A stretch of 64,000 nt of DNA. Origin: a virus (taxonomy: Duplodnaviria > Heunggongvirae > Uroviricota > Caudoviricetes). The stretch lies in IMG/VR virus record IMGVR_UViG_3300034122_001045. One strand, 5' to 3'. The notes under the pieces were generated by a model that searched no databases, had not been told where the DNA came from, and saw nothing but the letters and a program-made list of their open reading frames with translations. Positions 96 to 18,949 of the stretch are shown one piece after another. Both the position numbers and the translations under genes were made by a program. Position 1 is the stretch's first letter, and each line of letters begins with the position of its first letter.

Positions 96-2564
96 ATGGA
101 CGACAATAAAAAGATTGATCCAAAGAAAAAGAAGCAAAAAAGCTTTAAAGAATTTGACCCAACAAAATACATAGAAACAGAGCCAACTATGAACGAAGCT
201 GCAAGAGGTGTGGCTGTCGTTAGTTTTGGTCGTTTTAATCCAATTACAACCGGTCATGAAAAGTTAGTCAACACCGTCATGTCTGAAGCGATTAAGCGTA
301 AGGGCGAACCTGCGATCTATATGTCTCATACACAAGATCCTAAAAAGAACCCGCTATCGTACAATCAGAAGATATCTCTCGGTCAATCTGCATTTGGCAA
401 GATCGTTAAAAAGTCTACATCAAAAACACTCATAGAAGTAGCCAAAGAGCTCTCAGGAAAATATTCGGAACTCGTAATCGTTGTCGGTTCGGATCGAGTC
501 AATGAATTTGAGACTCTTATGAATAAGTATAACGGAAAAGAATACAATTTTGAGAATATATCAGTAGTATCTGCCGGAGAAAGAGATCCGGATTCTGACG
601 ATGTTTCTGGTATGTCAGCATCAAAGATGAGATCTCTTGCAGCTAAGAAGGACCTTGAAGCTTTTAAGAACGGTCTTCCAAAAAAGTTAAAATCGTCAGC
701 TAAGAAAGTGTATGACATGGTTAGAAACGGAATGAACATGACAGAAAGCACTGAAGAAGTAGTTTTAGAAGCAGCACCTCTTACTCTTGCTCAAAGACGT
801 AAACGTGGTCTTATAATGAAACGTTATAAGACAAAGATAAAGGCTGCTCGTGAGAGAGCTAAGAGAAAGATGGCGCCAAAAGAAAACCTTCTTAAGAGAG
901 CAAGAAAGCGAGCTTTAGAAGTTATTCGTGATCGCCTTATGAAGAACAAGAAGTATTCGGAAATGTCTCCTGCCGAAAAGATCAATCTAGACGCAAGACT
1001 TGCAAAAGTACCTAAGGCAGTCATTGGTCGTATTGCAGCAAAGCTTCTTCCTAAAGTTCGTGCCGCAGAAAAAGAAAGACTAAAGAATGTCCTTGCGCCT
1101 AAACAAGAATCTTTAGATACTGCGTTCGAAACTTTCTTAGAATCAAGAACCGTTAAACCGCAGGACAAAGACGTGGCACATATGCCGGGTTCGCAGCCTA
1201 AGGGATACTATGCTGGCGTTAAATCAAGTGTAAAGGATGATCGTGCTAGACACTTCGCAAAGTATTCTAAAAAGAGCGACGATGAGCAATCATCATATAA
1301 GCCAGCGCCTGGTGATAAAGGTGCTAAGACGAAGCCATCGGTTCACACAACAAAATTTAAACAGATGTTTGGCGAGTCTCTTAACGAAGCTTCACAGGCA
1401 GATACTAAGTTTCGTAAGAGACCGCATATGGCACTAGAAAAGAATGGTTCTGTTAAGTTTGATAAAAGATTTAAGATCTTTAAGAAACAGATTAACGAGA
1501 GCCACGAAGATTTTTCGTTTGAAATACTCGGTCTCATGGAAGATGTTGATAACTTTGTCATGTCTGAAGAGTACGATGTTCTTATGGAAAATAATCCAGA
1601 AGAAGCTCTCAAGAATAAAGCCGAAAAGAGCGGAATATCATACGGAATACTTAAGAAGGTGTTCGATCGTGGTGTAGCTGCTTGGAGAACTGGACACCGT
1701 CCAGGTACGACTCCAACTCAGTGGGGTCTCGCAAGAGTTAACTCGTTTGCCACAAAAGGCAAGGGTACTTGGGGTAAGGCAGACTCAGATCTTGCTGCTA
1801 AAGTAAGAAGCGAAGCAGTATCGCCAACAGCAGTTCATCCTTTTGTCCACATAAAGGACCCTGATAAAGCAGTTAAGATACCAAAGGCTCTAAAGCACAA
1901 GCTAGGTGTTGGTCTAACTCCAAAGCATATGATGATGCATGGAAGTAAAGCAATCGACTTAGATGTTGATGGCGACGTGGATAAGTTTGATAAGACTACA
2001 CCAGACGAAATCACTGGTACAGAGAAGAAGAACCTTACTCGTCAAATGCAAAAGAAGTATTCTGGAGAAGTCAAAACAGGTAAGATCGGAAACGCTTTTG
2101 AATCTGTTGACGAAGGCGTAGAACAAGCAAAGATGAAGATGAAGATCTCTCAAGAAAAGATGGCTGATGCAAGAAGGCACGATCGTATGCTTGATGCTGC
2201 AAAGCAAAGAGATAAATCTTCAAGCAAGAATCTATCTCGAGATATTCAAGAAGGTGATCCGAACCCTCATAATCGTGAGGATGGGACCGATAAGCTAGTC
2301 AAGACTTATAAGAAAGATACGCCCGGAGAGAAATCCCTTAAAGAGTTTATGCTCGCAGGATCGTTTGGCACATTCAAGAGAGGCGATAGAGTTCGTTTTA
2401 CGAAACACTCGATGGATATGTTCGACGGTCAACTACGTAAGGGTACTGTAGTAGGCGGAGACATTTCTTGGCTAAGAGTAAGAGACGACGACGGTACACT
2501 ATATAAAGTTCGCCATTACAACGCAGCTGCCGTCAATAACGACGATCCAGCCAATAAGTTTTAA
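96..2564 (+). CDS. Large lysine-rich protein (822 aa). N-terminal HIGH-motif nucleotidyltransferase domain (NMNAT/NadD/CoaD-like), followed by a ~600-aa basic low-complexity tail. Probable late, virion-packaged internal protein.
   Basis: GRFNPITTGHEKL (HxGH motif) at aa 45-58. SASKMRS (ISSTxIR-like motif) at about aa 174. Degenerate CTS-like KSFKEF at aa 15-20. Late promoter at 61-68. Paralog family with the downstream genes. Confidence 0.6.
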   Translation: MDDNKKIDPKKKKQKSFKEFDPTKYIETEPTMNEAARGVAVVSFGRFNPITTGHEKLVNTVMSEAIKRKGEPAIYMSHTQDPKKNPLSYNQKISLGQSAFGKIVKKSTSKTLIEVAKELSGKYSELVIVVGSDRVNEFETLMNKYNGKEYNFENISVVSAGERDPDSDDVSGMSASKMRSLAAKKDLEAFKNGLPKKLKSSAKKVYDMVRNGMNMTESTEEVVLEAAPLTLAQRRKRGLIMKRYKTKIKAARERAKRKMAPKENLLKRARKRALEVIRDRLMKNKKYSEMSPAEKINLDARLAKVPKAVIGRIAAKLLPKVRAAEKERLKNVLAPKQESLDTAFETFLESRTVKPQDKDVAHMPGSQPKGYYAGVKSSVKDDRARHFAKYSKKSDDEQSSYKPAPGDKGAKTKPSVHTTKFKQMFGESLNEASQADTKFRKRPHMALEKNGSVKFDKRFKIFKKQINESHEDFSFEILGLMEDVDNFVMSEEYDVLMENNPEEALKNKAEKSGISYGILKKVFDRGVAAWRTGHRPGTTPTQWGLARVNSFATKGKGTWGKADSDLAAKVRSEAVSPTAVHPFVHIKDPDKAVKIPKALKHKLGVGLTPKHMMMHGSKAIDLDVDGDVDKFDKTTPDEITGTEKKNLTRQMQKKYSGEVKTGKIGNAFESVDEGVEQAKMKMKISQEKMADARRHDRMLDAAKQRDKSSSKNLSRDIQEGDPNPHNREDGTDKLVKTYKKDTPGEKSLKEFMLAGSFGTFKRGDRVRFTKHSMDMFDGQLRKGTVVGGDISWLRVRDDDGTLYKVRHYNAAAVNNDDPANKF

Positions 2565-4325: not shown

Positions 4326-6461
4326 ATGAAGAGATTCAAATCTTATATTAACGAATCAGTTGAGCTCGATGAGTCAATCACGAAAATGTCTGATGCTCGT
4401 CTCAAGTTTCACGTTTTGAAAAATGTACCACATGGTAGCTATACCAAAAAAGAGCTATCGGCAGAACACGATCGTCGTAGAAAGACCCAAGGGCCTGCAT
4501 ATATGGCCGTAAAACCTTCACTCAACGAAGAAAATATTGATGAAGCAGTAAATGCTAAAAAGATTGCTGCAGATCATGACGCTGGTCATTCGATTGACGT
4601 TATTGTCCAAAAGCATCTCAATAAAAAGGGTGATAACAAGGATGAGATTCTAAAAGCTATTCAAGCTCACCGCTGGAATAAGCGTATGAAGAAAGAAGAA
4701 GCTGAACTTGACGAAGTTTCACAGGAGACGCTCCGTAATTATCACGCGAAGGCTGCTCTCGATTTAAGAAAGAAAAGAGAAAAACTTGATAAGGGTACTC
4801 TGACCTCTAAAGATTATAAGCAGGGACAAAACCGCGTAACTGGTTTGAATAGAGCTGCCAATAAAATGGAAGAAGTTGAACTTGATGAAGCTCGTAAGAG
4901 CGACTCATATCAATTTACTCACAAACCAGGCGATGCTGAATCTGAAAAAAGATTAGCCGACCTTAAAAAGTCAGTAAAAGGTACTGGTAAGCGTGTTGTA
5001 CTACAAGGTCGTTTGGGTAAAGACAATCCTAACGCACATAAGTATTCTAAGGATGCACCTAGTGCGAAATACAAAGACGGCAAGCGCGTAAATAGTGACG
5101 TTTCAGGAAAATCAGGTGGCCATTCTCATCAGCGCATTCAAAAAGCAGATGCAGCCCATCACGACGTATATGTCTACGACCGTAATGAGTCTGTTGAACT
5201 TGATGAAATTTCAAAAGCCACTTTACGTAAAGTGGGAGGCCAAATGCTACGTAAAGGCCTTTCAGACGACCCAAAAGCAGATAAGCACATGAAGTATGCA
5301 AATCTAGCGTCTGCAAAACTTTATCCTAACCAATATAAAAATTCTCCTCTAAAAGCGAAAGTTAACGCTACAGAAGAAGTCGAGTCCCTCGACGAACTTT
5401 CAAAGAAGACTCTTGGTTCATACGTGAAAAAAGCTGCTGGTGATGCTGTTACTAAAGCTTATAGAGCAGGTGACGTTCGAGATAAAGATAGTGGTAAGAA
5501 TTACATGAAAGCCCTAGGAAGACAGATTGGTATTTCTACAGCAACTAGTAAACTTGCGAAAGAAGAAGTTGAACTTGATGAAGTTTCGACCGCAACTTTG
5601 CAAAGATATAAATCTGCGGCAAGTAAAGCCATGGATCGTGCATCAGACTCAGCAATTGATAAAATGCTAGGCAGTAAGGATTCTCAGTCTGTAGACATTT
5701 CAAAAGAAAAAAAGACTATGGACAAGCGTAGCAAGGGAGTATCCCTCGCTTCAAATAAACTAGCTAAAGAAGAATTCGAACAGATCGACGAACTTTCAAA
5801 GAAGACCCTTGGTTCATATGTTAAGAAAGCCTCACGCAATCTAGCTGGAAGAGAATATAAGCGTGGAGCCGAAAAAGATACAAGCACGTCAAATCTCCAA
5901 AAATCCTATAAAAGAGATATGGGCATCGCTAAAGCAGTTGATAAACTAACTAAAGAAGAAGTTGAAAATCTTGATGAACTCAAGAAATCAACCCTCGGTT
6001 CATATGTGAAGAAGGCTGCTGGTAGTATGGCTGGTAAAACTGCTGTTGCTGCTGCACAAGCCTCATCCTCAATGGGAAAATCTTCGCCAGATATAAAGCG
6101 TGGTATAGTTAACCGTATGAAGGGTATTACTAGAGCTACTGATAAACTCGCAAAAGAAGAAGCAGATCTCGAAGAAAAACTGGTTGGCGGTCAAAAGAAG
6201 TTGGATCACAACAAGAACGGTAAAATCGACTCGCATGATTTTCATCTTATGAGAAAAAAGAAGATGAAGGAAGAAGTTGAAGGTCTTGACGAGATCTCTC
6301 GCGACCTAGCTCGTCGTTACATCCGTAAAATTGCTGATAAGACGAACACCGGAGAACTATCCGTCAAGCAAGTTGAGAAGCGTAGACCTGGTCTAAATCT
6401 TGCTGGTAAGAAAGCATACCCTTCGATCGCTGGTGAACCAAAGGTTCGTGCTACAGATTAA
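4326..6461 (+). CDS. 711-aa lysine-rich repeat protein, putative internal (capsid-targeted) protein
   Basis: N-terminus MKRFKSYINE (IxE at positions 8-10). At least 8 degenerate tandem repeats of the form EEVE(L/N/S)LDE(L/V/I)SKxTLGSYVKKAAG, spaced about 50-70 aa apart. Confidence 0.65.
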   Translation: MKRFKSYINESVELDESITKMSDARLKFHVLKNVPHGSYTKKELSAEHDRRRKTQGPAYMAVKPSLNEENIDEAVNAKKIAADHDAGHSIDVIVQKHLNKKGDNKDEILKAIQAHRWNKRMKKEEAELDEVSQETLRNYHAKAALDLRKKREKLDKGTLTSKDYKQGQNRVTGLNRAANKMEEVELDEARKSDSYQFTHKPGDAESEKRLADLKKSVKGTGKRVVLQGRLGKDNPNAHKYSKDAPSAKYKDGKRVNSDVSGKSGGHSHQRIQKADAAHHDVYVYDRNESVELDEISKATLRKVGGQMLRKGLSDDPKADKHMKYANLASAKLYPNQYKNSPLKAKVNATEEVESLDELSKKTLGSYVKKAAGDAVTKAYRAGDVRDKDSGKNYMKALGRQIGISTATSKLAKEEVELDEVSTATLQRYKSAASKAMDRASDSAIDKMLGSKDSQSVDISKEKKTMDKRSKGVSLASNKLAKEEFEQIDELSKKTLGSYVKKASRNLAGREYKRGAEKDTSTSNLQKSYKRDMGIAKAVDKLTKEEVENLDELKKSTLGSYVKKAAGSMAGKTAVAAAQASSSMGKSSPDIKRGIVNRMKGITRATDKLAKEEADLEEKLVGGQKKLDHNKNGKIDSHDFHLMRKKKMKEEVEGLDEISRDLARRYIRKIADKTNTGELSVKQVEKRRPGLNLAGKKAYPSIAGEPKVRATD

Positions 6462-6626
6462 GTTGAATAGTCAGGTGTTTCGTAGAGTAATAGAAGTACT
6501 GAACGGAAAATGGATCGAAGATGTCATAAATAACTTCGATCCATACGGAATAAAAGAACAGACTGATATTGAGTTAAATAAAAAACATCATGAAAAAACA
6601 AAACTCAATAATAAGGAGAAAATAAA

Positions 6627-7250
6627 ATGAGTTTATGGGGAAAAACAGATACGCTAGCTTCGGTGCCTAAGTGGCTCAATGCTAACGATCCAAACAAGTC
6701 CAACGACCTAGACAACGCATTCTTCGTTGACCTAACAGAAGCAGCAGTTGCTTCAAACATAGCAAAAGGCCTAGGTACTCCTGGCTGGAACCTTTATCAT
6801 ACATACGTCGATGGAACTGGAAATACACGTCACAAAGCTGAACCGCTTATCGTGATGAAGGTAACAGCTGCAGCCGCAGGCGACCTAGGTATTAGCGGTA
6901 ACACTAATATTGAAGATACTACTGTACCTGACACTATCATTGCGATTACAGTACAACCAGCTAGCGTTTCACGAGTTGCACCTAACACTGCAACATTTAC
7001 TGTTACCGCAACAGCGACACCTACCGCAACACTTACTTACCAGTGGCAGATTCAGCAATCTAACGAATCTGGAACTACATGGACTAACGTAGGTACGAAC
7101 GCCGCTAGCTATACCACAGGTGTAACTGCAGTGGCACCAGGATCTGGCGCAACTAACGGCGATAAGTATCGTGTACTTGTTTCAGCACCAAATAATACAC
7201 CTACTGTTGTAACATCTTCTACCGCAGTACTAACGGTAACTGCATCATAA
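6627..7250 (+). CDS. Ig-like domain protein, probable virion decoration or surface protein
   Basis: C-terminal half is T/S/A-rich beta-strand-like (TYQWQIQQSNESGTTWTNVGTNAASYTT, typical of I-set/Big domains). Strong RBS AAGGAGAAAATAAAATG. Confidence 0.45.
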   Translation: MSLWGKTDTLASVPKWLNANDPNKSNDLDNAFFVDLTEAAVASNIAKGLGTPGWNLYHTYVDGTGNTRHKAEPLIVMKVTAAAAGDLGISGNTNIEDTTVPDTIIAITVQPASVSRVAPNTATFTVTATATPTATLTYQWQIQQSNESGTTWTNVGTNAASYTTGVTAVAPGSGATNGDKYRVLVSAPNNTPTVVTSSTAVLTVTAS

Positions 7251-7256
7251 TTTGAA

Positions 7257-7631
7257 ATGAAACTAGGAGAATCAACCTTTCTTCTCTACGCTGCAAAACA
7301 CTATGATAATCCGCATTGTTCAGACATAGCAGAGTTTGAGGAAGACCTAAAAAGATTTCAGTACTTACGAAAGCTTTTTAGTAGATATAAGCAGACAGGA
7401 GATCTTAAGGAAAGGTTGATTCTCAATCATCTTATCATTCTGTATAATTGTTTTGGTGTAGATGCTACGAACATGCTCTTTATGAAGCTAGAAGAGTATC
7501 ATAAATACTTAAAACCGTTTGTTGAATACTTAAACTTCATGCCCGCTTTCATAGAGTATGAAAATAAAAAGATACACAACAACCATATCGAATCCGATAG
7601 AACAATTGAAGAAACTCTTAAAGGCATCTAA
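7257..7631 (+). CDS. hypothetical protein
   Basis: 124-aa ORF, in series with its neighbours. Confidence 0.4.
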   Translation: MKLGESTFLLYAAKHYDNPHCSDIAEFEEDLKRFQYLRKLFSRYKQTGDLKERLILNHLIILYNCFGVDATNMLFMKLEEYHKYLKPFVEYLNFMPAFIEYENKKIHNNHIESDRTIEETLKGI

Positions 7632-7633
7632 CA

Positions 7634-8188
7634 ATGGTCGTAGATCTTTTCCTTGTATATAGCTTTATTCGTAGACTTACAACTCCATTTGAAAAATGGG
7701 AAGCGTATGCACAAGGCGTAATCGATAAAGATGGAAATATTCTAAAGAAGAAAAAAGAAAGAAACACTAGAGGTGAAAAAGATTCCTTTGGTATATTCGA
7801 TCTTATGGTGCTAAAGCTTAAGAAGCTTCTTGCAAAGATCCCAGGTGGTTCCACTCGTCTTGCTTCATACACTGCTGCGTTGTGGCTCATAAAAGAGTGG
7901 AACCATTTTTCCGAGGATTCTTTACTCACTGAGTCTATCACCGATGAGCAACTCGATGAATCTCTAGATTTATTTTTTAGCAGATATTGCTATTATATCG
8001 GTATAGAAGAAGATGTCAAGGAAAAAATGATAGAAGAACCGACAGTAAATGTCGGGTCTGGTAACATAGCTGGTCTCGGTGTTGGACCGCAGGGCGAACC
8101 TGGATTAACACCTTCGCAGATGAAGAAGTATAAAAAGAAGAACCCCGGTCCTAAGAGACTTAGAGATATAATAGGAGCAAACACATGA
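7634..8188 (+). CDS. hypothetical protein
   Basis: 184-aa ORF, ATGA-coupled to the endolysin gene. Confidence 0.4.
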   Translation: MVVDLFLVYSFIRRLTTPFEKWEAYAQGVIDKDGNILKKKKERNTRGEKDSFGIFDLMVLKLKKLLAKIPGGSTRLASYTAALWLIKEWNHFSEDSLLTESITDEQLDESLDLFFSRYCYYIGIEEDVKEKMIEEPTVNVGSGNIAGLGVGPQGEPGLTPSQMKKYKKKNPGPKRLRDIIGANT

Positions 8189-9078
8189 TTACATTAGAAC
8201 AGTTCAGCGCAATGATACCGAAGAATAAAGAAGCTAAAGAATGGTATGATGTAGCTATCGACATGTTTGAAAAGTATGAAATCACAACACCACTTCGCAT
8301 TGCGGCTTTCATGGCACAGTGTGCTCACGAGTCAGCTGACTTTACAATGCTTGAAGAGAACCTTAACTATCGTGAAGAAACTCTTCTCAAGGTATTCCCA
8401 CGCTACTTCGGAGCTGGAAAGCGCAATGCAGCTGAGTATGCAAAGAACCCAGAGAAGATTGCGAACTACGTCTATATGGACGAGTTTAGAAGTAAGCAGG
8501 GTGCTATGGGAAATACTCAAGCAGGAGATGGTTGGAGATTCCGTGGTCGCGGAGTTAAGCAGTTAACTGGACGTAATAACTACACCGCATTCGCAAAGAC
8601 TGTTAACATGACCGCAGAACAGGCATCAGCTTATCTTGACACAAAGAAAGGTGCTCTTGAGTCCGCATGCTGGTTCTGGAAAACGAACAACATCGCTAAG
8701 TTTGCAGATGCAGACGACATTGTTGGAATGACTAAGAAAATCAATGGTGGAACGATTGGTCTTGAAGATCGTACTACTCGTTATACAAAAGCGAAAGCAC
8801 TACTTGGCGGTAAGGTTTCTGCACCTCCTGTTACTGAGCAAGCAAAACCAGCGTCGGCAGCAAAACCAGCGGCCGCTGCTCCTAAGGCTGCCCAGAGAAC
8901 TCTCACGAGAGGGATGAAGGGCGACGATGTTAAAAGAATGCAGCAAGCTCTCGGAATTGCCGCAGACGGTGACTTTGGTTTTGGAACTGCCGGCGCACTC
9001 AAGAAGTGGCAGCGAGAGAATGGATTAGAAGCCGACGGTGTCGCTGGGCCAGCGACTCTAGCAAAGCTACTCAAATAA
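8185..9078 (+). CDS. Endolysin: glycoside hydrolase family 19-like lysozyme domain plus C-terminal peptidoglycan-binding domain
   Basis: RIAAFMAQCAHESADF...LEENLNY is a GH19 catalytic signature. The C-terminus LTRGMKGDDVKRMQQALGIAADGDFGFGTAGALKKWQRENGLEADGVAGPATLAKL is a PG_binding_1 repeat. An Ala/Pro linker separates the domains. Confidence 0.8.
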   Translation: MITLEQFSAMIPKNKEAKEWYDVAIDMFEKYEITTPLRIAAFMAQCAHESADFTMLEENLNYREETLLKVFPRYFGAGKRNAAEYAKNPEKIANYVYMDEFRSKQGAMGNTQAGDGWRFRGRGVKQLTGRNNYTAFAKTVNMTAEQASAYLDTKKGALESACWFWKTNNIAKFADADDIVGMTKKINGGTIGLEDRTTRYTKAKALLGGKVSAPPVTEQAKPASAAKPAAAAPKAAQRTLTRGMKGDDVKRMQQALGIAADGDFGFGTAGALKKWQRENGLEADGVAGPATLAKLLK

Positions 9079-13104: not shown

Positions 13105-13261
13105 AGTAAAATATTGTATATAACTTCAAAAAGCTCTTGAGATAAGAATAAATACTACATGTTGACTAAAACAGACTAAAATCCACAATATATGTATTTG
13201 ATAAACCCTATTCGTAGGGTGTTGATTCATTTTCACTAATAACGATAAGAGGTACTTACGC

Positions 13262-14542
13262 ATGCTGGACGTTTCGAATAACGAAATAAGAAAGACAGTG
13301 AGCTATGTTTCGAAAAGAGACGGTTCAACTGAAAACTTCGATAGAAATAAAATTGTTACCGCAGTTTCAAAAGCTATGAGATCAGTTGGAATTAAAAGTA
13401 AAACTATACCAGAAGAAGTTTCATTGGAAGTGGCCGATAAACTTAACAGCGATGCTCTCAATGATGTTATCGTAAGCGTCGACGCAATTCATAGAACAGT
13501 TGAAAACGTAATCATGGATATGGGTCTGCACGATCTCGCTCGAGAATACATCCTCTATCGTTATAACAATATGCCAAGTATCTTTCGTAAGAGAACAAAT
13601 CTTAAACCTTACGAATATCCACAACTCATCGAGTACCTTGAAGCAATCCGCCATTCCTATTGGGTTCATACAGAGTTTAACTATTCATCCGACATTCAGG
13701 ATATGAAGGTTCGTATGACTCCTCAGGAAGCAGATATTGTAAAGAAGGCAATGCTTGCTATCTCTCAGATCGAAGTTCAAGTCAAAACGTTCTGGGCGAA
13801 GGTTGGCGATAAGATGCCAAAGCCAGAAGTACAAGCCGTTGGTGTTACCTTTGGTGAGTCTGAAGTTCGTCATGCTGATGCGTATTCAAACCTTCTTGAG
13901 ATAATGGGTCTTAACTCTGAGTTTGAGAACCTAGTTGAAGTACCAGCGATTAAGAAGCGTATCGCATATCTCGAGCAGTCGCTTCAGACTCCAGTTGATG
14001 ATAAGGACTACTTCCATAAGATCATTCTCTTTTCTATGTTCGTTGAAAATGTATCGCTATTCTCTCAGTTCCTTATTATGATGGCATTCAATAAACATAA
14101 GAACGTCCTTAAGGGTATCTCTAACGCTGTTGAAGCTACCTCAAAAGAAGAAGACATTCACGCTCGTTTTGGTTTCGAACTCGTGAATATCATTAAAGCA
14201 GAGAACCCAGACTGGTGGAACAAGGATACCATATCCGAAGTCAACCGTCTCTGCAAAGAAGCATATAAGGCAGAAGCTATGATCGTTGATTGGATCTATG
14301 GTGATTCGGATCTTGACTTTCTTCCGAAAGAAACCGTAAAAGAATTCCTCAAGCACCGTTTCAATCAGTCGCTTCAGGCAATCGACCTTAAACCTATCTA
14401 TGAAACCGATGTCAATGTAGTGAAGAGCACGAACTGGTTTGTTGAAGAAATCCTCAGCACAAAGAACGTTGACTTCTTCGTCAAGCGTAGCACTGCATAC
14501 TCAAAGAAGACAAAGTCATTCACAGAATCAGATCTATTCTAA
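13262..14542 (+). CDS. nrdB: Ribonucleotide reductase small subunit (NrdB) with N-terminal ATP-cone domain
   Basis: The N-terminal ~90 aa, VSKRDGSTENFDRNKIVTAVSKAM, are ATP-cone-like. The remaining ~330 aa are a ferritin-like R2 (helical, conserved E/H iron-ligand positions). Followed by nrdA. Confidence 0.75.
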   Translation: MLDVSNNEIRKTVSYVSKRDGSTENFDRNKIVTAVSKAMRSVGIKSKTIPEEVSLEVADKLNSDALNDVIVSVDAIHRTVENVIMDMGLHDLAREYILYRYNNMPSIFRKRTNLKPYEYPQLIEYLEAIRHSYWVHTEFNYSSDIQDMKVRMTPQEADIVKKAMLAISQIEVQVKTFWAKVGDKMPKPEVQAVGVTFGESEVRHADAYSNLLEIMGLNSEFENLVEVPAIKKRIAYLEQSLQTPVDDKDYFHKIILFSMFVENVSLFSQFLIMMAFNKHKNVLKGISNAVEATSKEEDIHARFGFELVNIIKAENPDWWNKDTISEVNRLCKEAYKAEAMIVDWIYGDSDLDFLPKETVKEFLKHRFNQSLQAIDLKPIYETDVNVVKSTNWFVEEILSTKNVDFFVKRSTAYSKKTKSFTESDLF

Positions 14543-14761
14543 GGAGAACATATAATGAGAAAAGAAATCTTAATTGCGCTTCGAGACCACGCGATTGCGC
14601 ATATCAATAAGCATAAGGTAAACGTTGAAATCTATTTGAATAATCCAGTCGGAGTTGGTGAGCATTCAGATATCATGGACACAATAGAAAAGGAACTCGA
14701 GGAGATGGCAAAGTACCACGATCAACTCGAAATTATTAATACATATTTTAAGGAATAATAA

Positions 14762-16417
14762 ATGGAAAAATTCTATTGGCTCAACGATGACTCAAGAAAG
14801 TTTTTGTCTCGCGGATATCTAAGCGAAGGTGAAACTCCTGAGGAACGCATTCGTGCGATTGCTGATACTGCAGAAAAGTATTTGACCATGCCAGGATATG
14901 CTGACAAGTTCTATGACTACATGGCTCGTGGTTTCTACTCTCTGTCGTCGCCAGTCTGGGCAAACTATGGTAAGGAAAGAGGACTTCCAGTATCCTGCTT
15001 TGGTTCTTACATCGACGATAACATGGAATCCATTCTATACGGTGTCGCCGAGAACGGAATGCTTATGAAGAACGGCGGAGGTACTTCCGGTTACTTCGGT
15101 GCAGTACGTCATCGTGGTGCTCCTATTCGTGACTCGGGCGAGTCTTCGGGTTCTGTGCACTTTATGCAGCTATATGATTCGTTGGCTTCAGTCGTATCTC
15201 AGGGTTCTGTTCGTCGTGGCTTCTTTGCTGCATATCACGACATCGATCACCCAGACGCAGACGAGTTTCTTGACATCGGAACGGAAGGAAATCCAATTCA
15301 GGGACTAACGACCGGTGTTGTTGTTTCAAACGAATTCATTCAGGCAATGAAGGATGGAGACGCAGAAAAACGTCGTCTTTGGGCAAAGGTTCTTCAGCGT
15401 CGTTCTGAGATTGGTTATCCATATGTTCTCTTCGGAGATAATGTTAACAATAACAAGCCTCAAGTATATAAGGATAAAGACCTCAAGATCCATGCATCGA
15501 ACATGTGTATTGAGATCGCGCTTCCTTCTTCCGTAGAAGAAACCTTTACTTGCGTTCTATCGTCAATCAACGTTCTTCATTGGGATGAGATCATTAAGAC
15601 CGATGCGATCGAAGTCATGACTTATTTCCTCGACACAGTATGCGAGGAGTTCATTCGTAAGACTGAAGGCCAAGAATATCTCAAGAGAGCTCGTCAGTTC
15701 GCAATCAATCACAGAGCACTTGGTGTAGGAATACTTGGATGGCATTCATATCTTCAGTCAAAGATGATTGCATTTGAGTCAAAAGAAGCCGCTCAAAAGA
15801 ATCTTGAGATCGCAAAGGTCCTTCGTGAACAGAGCCATAGAGCTTCTAAAGTTCTCGCAGAAATGTTTGGCGAGGCTCCTCTTCTTGTTGGTTACGGAAT
15901 GCGCAATACGACTACGATGGCTATCGCTCCAACAAAGAGCAGCTCGTTCATCCTTGGTCAAGTAAGTCAATCCATCGAGCCAGAGTTCTCTAACTGCTAC
16001 GTGAAGGATCTCGCAAAGATGAAGGTTACGATTAAGAACCCTTATCTTCTTCAGCTGCTTCAGGAAAAAGGTATGGACACGGAAGAAGTTTGGGACTCCA
16101 TTAAGATAGCAGACGGTTCCGTTCAACACCTAAGCTTCTTGTCTCAGGAAGAGAAGGATGTATTCAAGACGTTCGCAGAAATCAATCCATACACGATCAT
16201 CGATCATGCGGCTGTCCGTCAAGAATATATAGATCAGGGGCAAAGCCTTAACCTCATGTTGGATCCTCACATGTCCGTGAAGGAAATAAACCAACTATAC
16301 CTATATGCGCATGAAATGGGTGTTAAGAGTCTCTACTACAGCTACTCGATGTCTGCTGCGCAGTCGTTGACTAGAAAAAGAGTGATGGCAAGCAGCTGCG
16401 CAGCCTGCGAAGCCTAA
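14762..16417 (+). CDS. nrdA: Ribonucleotide reductase large subunit (NrdA), short form lacking an ATP cone
   Basis: 551 aa. SNMCIEIALPS matches the SNLCxEI active-site motif. C-terminal CAACEA cysteine pair. No N-terminal ATP-cone. Confidence 0.75.
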   Translation: MEKFYWLNDDSRKFLSRGYLSEGETPEERIRAIADTAEKYLTMPGYADKFYDYMARGFYSLSSPVWANYGKERGLPVSCFGSYIDDNMESILYGVAENGMLMKNGGGTSGYFGAVRHRGAPIRDSGESSGSVHFMQLYDSLASVVSQGSVRRGFFAAYHDIDHPDADEFLDIGTEGNPIQGLTTGVVVSNEFIQAMKDGDAEKRRLWAKVLQRRSEIGYPYVLFGDNVNNNKPQVYKDKDLKIHASNMCIEIALPSSVEETFTCVLSSINVLHWDEIIKTDAIEVMTYFLDTVCEEFIRKTEGQEYLKRARQFAINHRALGVGILGWHSYLQSKMIAFESKEAAQKNLEIAKVLREQSHRASKVLAEMFGEAPLLVGYGMRNTTTMAIAPTKSSSFILGQVSQSIEPEFSNCYVKDLAKMKVTIKNPYLLQLLQEKGMDTEEVWDSIKIADGSVQHLSFLSQEEKDVFKTFAEINPYTIIDHAAVRQEYIDQGQSLNLMLDPHMSVKEINQLYLYAHEMGVKSLYYSYSMSAAQSLTRKRVMASSCAACEA

Positions 16418-16704: not shown

Positions 16705-17199
16705 ATGCGTTTATCAACACTAACATTTACGTTAACCATGCTTTTAAGTTCTTCTTTGGCATATGCTTCGGCTTGTGACACAGAGGATAAAATTCATGCT
16801 CTGGCACTCAACATGTATCACGAGGCAAGAGGTGAAGGAAGCGATGCAATGCAGATGGTCGGTGAAGTAACACTTAATCGAGCAGGAAATAACCTCTTTC
16901 CAAGTACCATATGCGATGTAGTCTATCAGGCGAAAACCGATTCTAACGGTAATCCACTTCGTGGAAAATGTCAGTTCTCTTGGTACTGCGATGGTAGATC
17001 TGATATGCCTCGTGATCGAGAGTTGTGGTCTGAATCAGTAGAGATTGCGACTGGTCTAGTTGATGGTACCGCAGACCTAATTGGTACTAACGCCACACAC
17101 TATCACACAAAACGTGTAAAGCCTCATTGGGCTAAACACTATACAAAAGTAGGATACTATGGTGGTCATGTCTTTTATCGTGTTGGAAGTAAACTATGA
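16705..17199 (+). CDS. Secreted cell-wall hydrolase, SleB-like domain
   Basis: Signal peptide MRLSTLTFTLTMLLSSSLAYA. LALNMYHEARGEGSDAMQMVGEVTLNRA...CQFSWYCDG matches the SleB/Hydrolase_2 pattern. Confidence 0.6.
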   Translation: MRLSTLTFTLTMLLSSSLAYASACDTEDKIHALALNMYHEARGEGSDAMQMVGEVTLNRAGNNLFPSTICDVVYQAKTDSNGNPLRGKCQFSWYCDGRSDMPRDRELWSESVEIATGLVDGTADLIGTNATHYHTKRVKPHWAKHYTKVGYYGGHVFYRVGSKL

Positions 17200-17387
17200 T
17201 TCGATGGTATGACTATGCGATGGCCTTTCTGGTTGCCGATCTTTTAACAGGATTGATTATAAATGCTGCGATAGCAGAGACTTTTTGGCTGCAGATAGGC
17301 ATAAGTTTACTTTTTGCTCTTATCTGGGATCTTTGGGCTAATATATATTGTCAGGTAAGGCTGCGTATGGAAGAAAAACGTGAGTAA
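17196..17387 (+). CDS. Small 2-TM membrane protein (holin-like candidate)
   Basis: 63 aa with two hydrophobic helices. ATGA-coupled to the SleB-like gene. Confidence 0.4.
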   Translation: MIRWYDYAMAFLVADLLTGLIINAAIAETFWLQIGISLLFALIWDLWANIYCQVRLRMEEKRE

Positions 17388-17808
17388 GTATTCAGAAGTA
17401 AAGAAATTGTTCTGGTTGATCCTAGGTATCGTGCTGTTAGGCATTGCATACCTAGGTATCATACTTCCTGGTATTCCATGGAGTACGCCAGCAGTTCTTG
17501 CTGCTATCTGTTTTGCAAAGTCAAGCAACCGAATGCACGCTTGGATCTATAACCATCGTGTGTTCGGTCCTTTTCTGACCAATTGGAATGAAAAGAAAGT
17601 CTTTCCTACGAAAGCAAAGTACCTTATGATAGGAACGATGTCGGTATCACTTCTTATGTTGTGGATCGCTACTCAGAACATCAACGCCGTTATGTGGTCT
17701 GCATTGTTTATGTTCTTCGTAGCAGTGTGGGGATGGAGATATCCAGGAAGTGTAGAAGAACACGATCAAAGAGTTAAAGAGGGTAAGAAGATAGCATGGC
17801 TGAAATAG
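17380..17808 (+). CDS. DUF454/YbaN-like inner-membrane protein
   Basis: LGIAYLGIILPGIPWSTPAVLAAICFAKSS is typical of the DUF454 family. Confidence 0.5.
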   Translation: MSKYSEVKKLFWLILGIVLLGIAYLGIILPGIPWSTPAVLAAICFAKSSNRMHAWIYNHRVFGPFLTNWNEKKVFPTKAKYLMIGTMSVSLLMLWIATQNINAVMWSALFMFFVAVWGWRYPGSVEEHDQRVKEGKKIAWLK

Positions 17809-18050: not shown

Positions 18051-18401
18051 ATGATTACCATCTACCAGATCCAACTGACCGACGATCAGATCATCGCTAT
18101 CAACGCAGGTCGTGAGGTTGAAGCTTTTACGGTTCGCAACCGAATGCAGTTCGGCTTTGATAAGTCTAAGTTCTCTGAAGCTTATCTGAAGCACTACGTC
18201 AAAGGTTGGGAAATCGATACTACCGACCTGGACGAAGCGTTCGAAGTTTCGAATGGGATTGGTGATCGTTACAAGGGTAAGCGCATCGGCCGTGCTTATT
18301 CCAGTTCTGTCGGTGATATCTTCATCGACGATAGCGGTGATTGCTTCGTCTGCGATACCTTTGGCTTCGTCGCTGTTGGCAAATATCCGCAGCTGACCTA
18401 G
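18051..18401 (+). CDS. Small early protein, unknown function (C-ending codon usage)
   Basis: 116 aa. Preceded by the conserved cassette and the RBS GGAGG. Confidence 0.6.
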   Translation: MITIYQIQLTDDQIIAINAGREVEAFTVRNRMQFGFDKSKFSEAYLKHYVKGWEIDTTDLDEAFEVSNGIGDRYKGKRIGRAYSSSVGDIFIDDSGDCFVCDTFGFVAVGKYPQLT

Positions 18402-18949
18402 TTCATAGTCATAACTGTTGTGTTCACATCTGTAGGCCATCTTCTAACGGAGATGGCCTTTCTTGCTTCATATACCTTGTAGCTTACTTCGTTTCCTTGA
18501 TTTCCACCAAGAATAACATAGTACATCTTTCCTTCGTCGACATAGGAAGTAACAAAGAATCCGACGTGTCCTTGCCACTGTTGCCTTCCTCTCGGAAACA
18601 CGACTACATCTCCAGGTCGAGGACTCTCAGTAACTTCTTCACCCCACTTTAAAAAGCTTTTTGCCACGAGAGGATGATTACTGACTGACTCGGATCCTGG
18701 TATACCCTTTGTGGATAGAATTGAATTTACGAAGGCGGCGCACCACTCGAAACGTGATGGATCCATACCCATTAGACTCTTTAGTTGCTTTCTGTCTGTT
18801 ACCTCATGCATGCCTACGTAGTTACTAGCATAGTAAACCACCTTTTCACTATTTTCTTTTGCAAGCTTTTCTTCACGTTTAGCAAGATATTCAGGATTCG
18901 TGCAAGCAGTTAAGAATGTTAATATAAATAAAATCATGGTTATTTTCAT
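18398..18949 (-). CDS. Lipoprotein with NlpC/P60-CHAP-like cysteine peptidase domain (cell-wall peptidase)
   Basis: Signal plus lipobox LTAC. A Cys in FEWCAAFVNS and a His in GHVGFF are spaced as in papain-like peptidoglycan peptidases. An opposite-strand gene among plus-strand genes. Confidence 0.55.
   Translation of the reverse strand: MKITMILFILTFLTACTNPEYLAKREEKLAKENSEKVVYYASNYVGMHEVTDRKQLKSLMGMDPSRFEWCAAFVNSILSTKGIPGSESVSNHPLVAKSFLKWGEEVTESPRPGDVVVFPRGRQQWQGHVGFFVTSYVDEGKMYYVILGGNQGNEVSYKVYEARKAISVRRWPTDVNTTVMTMN

Follow-up and report, generated by a model that had tools for sequence, protein, structure and literature searches.

The stretch of viral DNA analysed here (IMG/VR record IMGVR_UViG_3300034122_001045; 64,000 nucleotides, hereafter the window) is a 64-kb view of a phage genome of ~218 kb. 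Its forward strand encodes the two subunits of a ribonucleotide reductase (RNR): the radical-generating (beta) subunit NrdB (13262..14542, 426 residues) and the catalytic (alpha) subunit NrdA (14762..16417, 551 residues), with a gene of 67 codons, orf67 (14555..14758), between them. The initial annotation gave the coordinates of both subunit genes exactly and omitted orf67; it proposed that an ATP-cone is fused to the R2 ferritin-like domain of NrdB and that NrdA has no such domain, and the domain searches described below uphold both proposals. A Shine-Dalgarno sequence is present separately for each of the three genes. That of nrdB (AAGAGGT, 13248..13254, forward strand), read from the sequence, ends 7 nucleotides 5′ of the ATG and supports 13262 as the start codon.

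NrdB consists of a variable N-terminal tail (residues 1-14, 13262..13303), the ATP-cone (residues 15-101, 13304..13564), a linker between cone and core with the sequence NNMPSIFRK (residues 102-110, 13565..13591), the ferritin-like R2 core (residues 111-384, 13592..14413) and a C-terminal tail (residues 385-426, 14414..14539). The cone, predicted to be the activity site for ATP and dATP, was identified by Pfam family PF03477 with a score far beyond chance (E=1.1e-18; 68 bits versus a gathering cutoff of 25.8) and includes at residues 16-39 the peptide VSKRDGSTENFDRNKIVTAVSKAM that the initial annotation had quoted; the core was identified as Ribonuc_red_sm (PF00268, E=3e-56). The linker aligns with the linker and the start of the core in 5OLK, the solved structure of the ATP-cone::NrdBi protein of Leeuwenhoekiella blandensis, and its IF.kR motif is conserved over diverse NrdBi proteins with a fused cone (cone::NrdBi). 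The C-terminal tail, which ends in ...AYSKKTKSFTESDLF, aligns with the C-terminus of 5OLK, ...NYSKRTQSITSDDLF. From general knowledge of class I RNR, we take this tail to be the part of NrdB that binds NrdA, and its residue Y413 presumably lies on the radical-transfer path.

NrdB and 5OLK align from end to end (residues 7-426 of NrdB, E=7.6e-138) with an identity of 53% over the whole length and of 33% within the cone. The solved relatives that follow 5OLK are the class Id beta structures 6SF4, 8DQ3 and 6CWO/6CWP/6CWQ; the top eight all align with the core (43-66% identity equivalents, E 1e-138 to 1e-79), and 9DWS, which comes after these eight (class Id 5OLK and 6CWO among them), reaches only 3e-20. 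When the residue numbering of the eLife paper on the L. blandensis enzyme (PMC5794259) was transferred to NrdB through the 5OLK alignment, the six metal ligands (E171, E201, H204, E262, E297 and H300), the second-sphere residues S200 and E296, the helix-bulge lysine K175, the tryptophan W178, the non-radical tyrosine Y208 and T293 were all found to be conserved. The residues at the metal site fit the published signature of subclass Id, in which the first sphere is E-E-H-E-E-H (ligand 1 being glutamate, not aspartate) and the second sphere is C/S and D/E (Table 4, PMC6370689). In a neighbour-joining tree of the cores, without support values, NrdB clusters inside the NrdBi representatives.

The only Pfam domains of NrdA are Ribonuc_red_lgN (residues 11-74, the all-alpha N domain) and Ribonuc_red_lgC (the barrel). 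On the NCBIfam model TIGR02510 (NrdE-prime), NrdA scores 772.8 bits, above the curated cutoff of 602.25; the solved structures nearest to it, 6DQX (E=1.2e-214) and 6DQW (E=3.3e-188), are alpha subunits of class Id, and because these alignments begin at residue 3, no N-terminal domain is missing. The median length of NrdAi proteins is 564 residues, close to the 551 of NrdA. Both motifs pointed out in the initial annotation are in place: the active-site finger loop SNMCIEI (Asn-x-Cys-x-Glu; residues 246-252, 15497..15517), which aligns with SNLCTEI of 6DQX, and the C-terminal CAACEA (residues 546-551, 16397..16414, read from the sequence), of which the cysteines (CxxC) are probably the redox-shuttle pair. 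Alignment with the solved relatives indicates that further active-site cysteines are retained besides that of the finger loop, and LYYSYS of NrdA (16331..16348) aligns with IYYQYS of 6DQX; its Tyr-Tyr pair, by what is known of class I RNR, is presumably part of the radical-transfer path. When the whole window was searched in six frames with a cone profile of 30 diverse cone::NrdBi sequences, NrdB alone was matched (E=7e-36), and the next-best fragment (E=0.1) lies in an antisense frame, so that no cone is attached to NrdA or encoded upstream of it.

Judged from its sequence, the locus is thus a two-subunit aerobic RNR of class Id (NrdAi/NrdBi) that displays every defining feature of this class testable in sequence. 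The NrdAi/NrdBi assignment that the initial annotation had put forward is confirmed by the full-length alignment with 5OLK, by 6DQX and 6DQW as the best matches of NrdA and by the TIGR02510 score. The two genes lie on the same strand with beta 5′ of alpha, an order that is found for nearly all cones on beta subunits and is common in NrdAi operons (Burnim et al.).

The product of orf67, which is transcribed in the same direction, aligns with phrog_1811 from end to end (E=1.9e-30). The gene has its own Shine-Dalgarno sequence (GGAGA), and a double stop, TAA-TAA, directly precedes the ATG of nrdA. Three ways in which orf67 might belong to the RNR were considered and rejected. As a split-off or degenerate cone it is rejected because it has no Pfam hit, matches phrog_1811 throughout and is absent from 78 of 80 IMG/VR loci with a related NrdB; a weak match to a cone profile made from three sequences (E=0.28) rose to E=6 with a better profile. 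As an N-terminal extension of NrdA, with which it shares a frame, it is excluded by the intervening TAA-TAA and by the N-terminal completeness of NrdA relative to 6DQX. As an RNR accessory factor, phrog_1811 is rejected because its neighbours in cultured phages are unrelated genes, among them ferredoxin, pcyA and zwf; outside the present phage it occurs in cyanomyophages, a cyanopodovirus, pelagiphages and phage Melnitz, and it is not linked to RNR there. Because it stands beside unrelated genes in other phages, phrog_1811 seems to be a small gene that shifts from site to site. Among 82 loci compared (80 of them from IMG/VR), orf67 was found only in the window's own phage (the window, L001 and L002) and its closest relative (L003). 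It is a small unrelated gene that was recently inserted between the subunit genes, and does not belong to the RNR.

The exact NrdB sequence is present on 44 contigs of NCBI, JGI, ENA and Logan assemblies, the longest of which is ~218 kb, and the order of the genes around it is the same in independent assemblies. The notion that the cone and the R2 core are really separate genes, or were brought together in an assembly chimera, deserves practically no credence: nothing was found in its favour, the two domains occupy one uninterrupted frame, preceded at the proper spacing by a Shine-Dalgarno sequence, the fusion point is the same in 5OLK and in dozens of clusters at 50% identity, and such an artefact is excluded because independent assemblies carry the identical protein. 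Close relatives with NrdB 81-100% identical make up more than 120 clusters at the 90% identity level, each of which has both PF00268 and PF03477, and some members of this clade sit on contigs of 180-280 kb. Eighty IMG/VR loci carry NrdB at 53-91% identity, and wherever these extend past nrdB the next gene is nrdA, usually 13-30 nucleotides 3′ of nrdB.

The source phage is, on the evidence of its structural and replication genes, a T4-superfamily myovirus. Its major head protein is of the T4 type (phrog_138, E=3e-156), 62-68% identical to those of Sinorhizobium phages phiM12 and phiN3, Methylophilales phage Melnitz, Stenotrophomonas phage DLP6 and cyanomyophages; the window further encodes a portal protein (phrog_213), a sheath protein (phrog_23), an RnlA-like ligase, a Dda-like helicase and a primase. 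No nucleotide match to the locus was found by megablast among 50,697 phage genomes, so that this is a phage without a cultured close relative. The succession of a cone::nrdB gene and nrdA is conserved across a large uncultured T4-superfamily clade with genomes of ~218 kb.

The junction of cone and core was found in 64 of the 50,697 deposited phage genomes, namely those of Staphylococcus and Mammaliicoccus phages (Romulus, Remus, SA11 and relatives), Sporosarcina phage Lietuvens and Salicola phage SCTP-2. By their names and genome sizes, these carriers of the fusion are herelleviruses, a phage of 64.5 kb and a jumbo phage of 440 kb, none of them T4-like. The initial annotation called the arrangement unusual for a T4-like phage, a view that is borne out among cultured phages, the window's phage being placed in the T4 superfamily by its head protein. 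Its description of the arrangement as rare was overstated: apart from the more than 120 clusters of the clade, no fewer than 29 of the 150 best representatives at 50% identity align with NrdB from the cone onward (36-55% identity). The 2018 eLife paper already counted 93 RefSeq cases of a cone on NrdB "encoded by viruses and bacteria" (PMC5794259). The fusion is therefore seldom seen in cultured phages, has no report from cultured T4-like ones, and is not rare in sequence space.

Several relatives of the locus have an interrupted or extended form of these genes. In L006, L007 and L065, nrdA is broken exactly at the active-site cysteine (...SNM|C), with intein-like ends (CLRGDS... and ...ILVHN|CIEI) and stop codons between them; the break in L006 (~6040-7366) contains an HNH-type endonuclease gene in another frame, while L075 (~6057-6572) has a bare split intein of ~0.5 kb. 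The breaks resemble a "fractured gene" arrangement that Dassa et al. are said to have described in 2009. The window's own nrdA, unlike these four, is uninterrupted. One cone::NrdB representative, P0136, is 1019 residues long, with ~590 additional C-terminal residues, and in phrog_30939, a profile of 977 positions, NrdB matches positions 7-323 while NrdA matches 468-962. The two observations together point to the existence of single-chain fusions of NrdB and NrdA in some phages.

When the ratio of nonsynonymous to synonymous substitution (dN/dS) was computed by region with the Nei-Gojobori method from 69 distinct sequences of the clade aligned by codons, it came to ~0.18 in the cone (residues 15-101), ~0.08 in the linker (residues 102-110), ~0.035 in the core (residues 111-384) and ~0.07 in the C-terminal tail (residues 385-426), figures that are rough because dS is near saturation (~1.5). 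The cone is clearly under purifying selection. Residues 1-14 are practically unconstrained, the proportions of nonsynonymous and synonymous differences (pN 0.57, pS 0.66) being about equal; longer N-terminal extensions are found in P0045 and P0120 (436-439 residues), and the true nrdB start codon may vary among the relatives. Within the cone, the clade has the invariant or near-invariant motifs K18-R19-(D/N)-G, K30-I31, V80-E81-N82 and A93-R94-E95-Y96-I97-x-Y-R100, which recur in distant cone::NrdBi proteins.

In the neighbour-joining tree of the cores, which without support values is only indicative, the phage clade falls into an all-cone branch together with P0123, P0127, P0156 and P0142, separate from the branch of L. 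blandensis, and cone-bearing and cone-less NrdBi are interspersed overall, from which it follows that cones are gained and lost readily. The position of the clade fits the inheritance of a gene that was already fused; it is also in keeping with the evolutionary mobility known for the ATP-cone. The same interspersion might suggest that the cone is a decaying remnant of a horizontally acquired nrdBi gene, that it no longer binds nucleotides and that the enzyme has no regulation of its overall activity, like cone-less NrdBi enzymes such as that of Flavobacterium johnsoniae. Cone-less NrdAi/NrdBi pairs are indeed present and functional in many phages, including numerous rhizobiophages and roseophages. 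Decay is nevertheless very improbable for this clade, given the dN/dS of the cone over the 69 sequences, its near-invariant motifs, a Pfam score well over the gathering cutoff, and the fact that every close relative in the more than 120 clusters has kept the cone, none having lost or truncated it.

By homology with the NrdBi proteins of L. blandensis and Facklamia ignava, the cone of NrdB probably acts as the ATP/dATP activity switch of a class Id RNR belonging to a T4-superfamily phage. A predicted dimanganese centre in NrdB, expected to be of the Mn(III)/Mn(IV) kind and to lack a tyrosyl radical, would supply the oxidant to the active-site cysteine by way of the tyrosine of the C-terminal tail and NrdA's Tyr-Tyr pair. 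With ATP on the cone, NrdB would be dimeric, allowing formation of the active alpha2beta2 complex; accumulating dATP would bind to the cone instead, the cones would pair through their last two helices (3 and 4), and NrdB would be sequestered in the inactive form of beta4, or of alpha2beta4 or alpha4beta4 with NrdA. The identity of the metal, the binding of nucleotides, the oligomeric switch and the inhibition by dATP are all predicted from likeness to characterised enzymes. The hydrophobic residues of the cone-cone interface of 5OLK are identical (M80 as M85, I92 as I97) or conservatively replaced (I93 as L98), and of its charged residues, K89 has become R94 and R95 is retained as R100.

Several points weigh against the proposed switch. 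The RNR of T4 is not shut off by dATP, despite an N-terminal region on its NrdA, and so a cone in a phage need not be an off-switch. The dN/dS figures are rough, as noted, and the cone is just 33% identical to the characterised cone of L. blandensis; helix 3 reads H-R-x-V-E-N in the window and Q-D-x-V-E-D in L. blandensis, so that Arg78 stands in place of Asp73, a residue that makes an internal salt bridge to Arg95 and was termed conserved (PMC5794259). To regard Arg78 as the mark of a broken cone was rejected, however: most cone::NrdBi proteins carry H-[R/K/A/E] at this place, and therefore Arg78 is the common variant and no defect, and the aspartate of L. blandensis may be the atypical state. 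Finally, the two assayed enzymes with a cone on NrdBi, those of L. blandensis (PMC5794259) and Facklamia ignava (PMC6187632), are both on/off switches inhibited by dATP, but they differ in ATP stoichiometry (PMC6187632), and therefore the details of the window's enzyme may differ again.

The cone might instead bind nucleotide without shutting the enzyme off, as an ATP-only activator or as a docking module, for example in a T4-type complex for the synthesis of deoxyribonucleoside triphosphates (dNTPs). This would suit a lytic phage that profits from an unrestrained supply of dNTPs, and would be in keeping with the uninhibited RNR of T4; purifying selection shows that the cone is functional and is silent as to which function it has, and its evolution approximately five times faster than that of the core, together with the replacement of Asp73 by Arg78, would also be accommodated. 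It has been argued, moreover, that phages often forgo inhibition by dATP (PMC6370689, PMC9669993). On the other side are the dATP inhibition of both assayed cone::NrdBi enzymes and the conservation or conservative replacement of the hydrophobic residues of the tetramer interface, in view of which a cone without shut-off is unlikely, and an activity switch of the L. blandensis type remains the preferred prediction.

The RNR genes are part of a co-directional cluster for nucleotide metabolism (primase, frd, td, nrdB, orf67, nrdA), in which they come after frd and td as in the nucleotide-metabolism clusters of T4-like phages. A search of the window for the C-x-x-C motif in ORFs of 50-160 residues, which is a weak test, yielded no convincing thioredoxin, glutaredoxin or NrdH encoded by the phage; the reductant of the RNR is presumably provided by the host or encoded elsewhere in the ~218 kb genome. 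Around the locus, promoter-like sites are no more numerous than in shuffled sequence, no terminators were found, and a scan for tRNA genes found none.

Other genes of the window are of separate interest. Just 3′ of the RNR genes, also in L001 and L002, is a gene for a DUF454 (PF04304) inner-membrane-type protein (17380-17808, forward strand). Three genes resembling peptidoglycan hydrolases lie inside 11 kb: an endolysin with a PG_binding_1 domain (phrog_181; 8185-9078, forward strand), a SleB-type Hydrolase_2 protein (16705-17199, forward strand) and, on the opposite strand, a CHAP-domain protein (18398-18949, reverse strand). The N-termini of the SleB-type and CHAP proteins (MRLSTLTFTLTMLLSSSLAYASAC and MKITMILFILTFLTAC) resemble signal or lipoprotein sequences, an unusual feature in phage lysins. 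An 822-residue protein (96-2564, forward strand) matches phage "cytidyltransferase" families over its N-terminal third, residues ~12-330 (phrog_3041, E=1e-93), and not over the ~500 residues that follow.

An ATP-cone on the beta subunit is not new, having been characterised biochemically and structurally since 2018 and already noted in viruses. What is new here is modest, namely the conservation of the gene pair, with its cone under purifying selection, in a large uncultured T4-superfamily clade; the locus differs from the known members of the family in this host lineage, in the divergence of its cone and in the small gene between the subunit genes. The locus itself leaves the understanding of RNR unchanged, and its value is modest, ecological and comparative. 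A large and widely sampled T4-like clade retains the cone of NrdB under purifying selection, contrary to the argument that phages shed the activity regulation of RNR for the sake of dNTP output or compact genomes (PMC6370689, PMC9669993). The divergent natural set of cone::NrdBi proteins could be used to map the residues required for the sensing of dATP and the formation of beta4, and the cones of the clade could serve as parts for engineered oligomerisation switches controlled by dATP, as proposed previously (PMC5794259). The GenBank labels "class Ia" and "hypothetical protein" on such phage proteins could be corrected.

A bolder and doubtful interpretation is that this abundant clade is the first known T4-superfamily lineage with RNR activity control on the beta subunit, through a divergent cone that perhaps responds unlike the bacterial paradigm. 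The cone might sense only ATP, use another stoichiometry or form a different inhibited oligomer. If such a divergent nucleotide response were true, lytic phages would tune the supply of dNTPs to the energy state of the host, not simply discard regulation.

Among the known systems, the L. blandensis NrdAi/NrdBi enzyme (5OLK, dATP-bound; Rozman Grinberg et al., eLife 2018, PMC5794259) has the same N-terminal ATP-cone, short linker, NrdBi core and flexible C-terminal tail, an alpha subunit without a cone, and the same order of beta and alpha; the metal ligands are identical, as are Lys 174/175, Trp 177/178 and Tyr 207/208 (L. blandensis/window). It differs in belonging to a flavobacterium and not a T4-like phage, in having Asp73 and Lys89 where the window has Arg78 and Arg94 within a cone of 33% identity, and in lacking the unrelated gene of 67 codons between the subunit genes. 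The Grx::ATP-cone::NrdBi protein of F. ignava (PMC6187632) likewise has its cone on NrdBi and nrdA just downstream, and the primer sequence published for its NrdAi implies the C-terminus ...ALACEA, a tail ending in CEA with its cysteine as in the window's NrdA; the glutaredoxin fused to it has no counterpart in the phage NrdB, nor was a redoxin gene found in the window.

The class Id RNRs from Flavobacterium johnsoniae and from Actinobacillus ureae (6CWO, 6CWP, 6CWQ, 6DQW and 6DQX) include the closest solved relatives of NrdA and match the core of NrdB with E ~1e-86; the beta chains of 6CWO, 6CWP and 6CWQ (307-344 residues) align only from residue ~104 of NrdB and show no cone. Rhizobiophages (the RHph_TM30 group, phiM9 and Atu_ph04) and roseophages have the same subclass of RNR (NrdA 47-56% and NrdB core 34-49% identical), and because their NrdB matches begin at residues ~102-107 of the window's protein, they have no cone. 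The cultured phages with ATP-cone::NrdB (Silviavirus Romulus, Remus, SA11 and Stau2, the Mammaliicoccus phages, Lietuvens and SCTP-2), whose GenBank labels read "class Ia beta subunit" or "hypothetical protein", have the same fusion and the same order of beta before alpha as the window, and their proteins are 47-49% identical to NrdB over residues 9-426 and 56-58% identical to NrdA.

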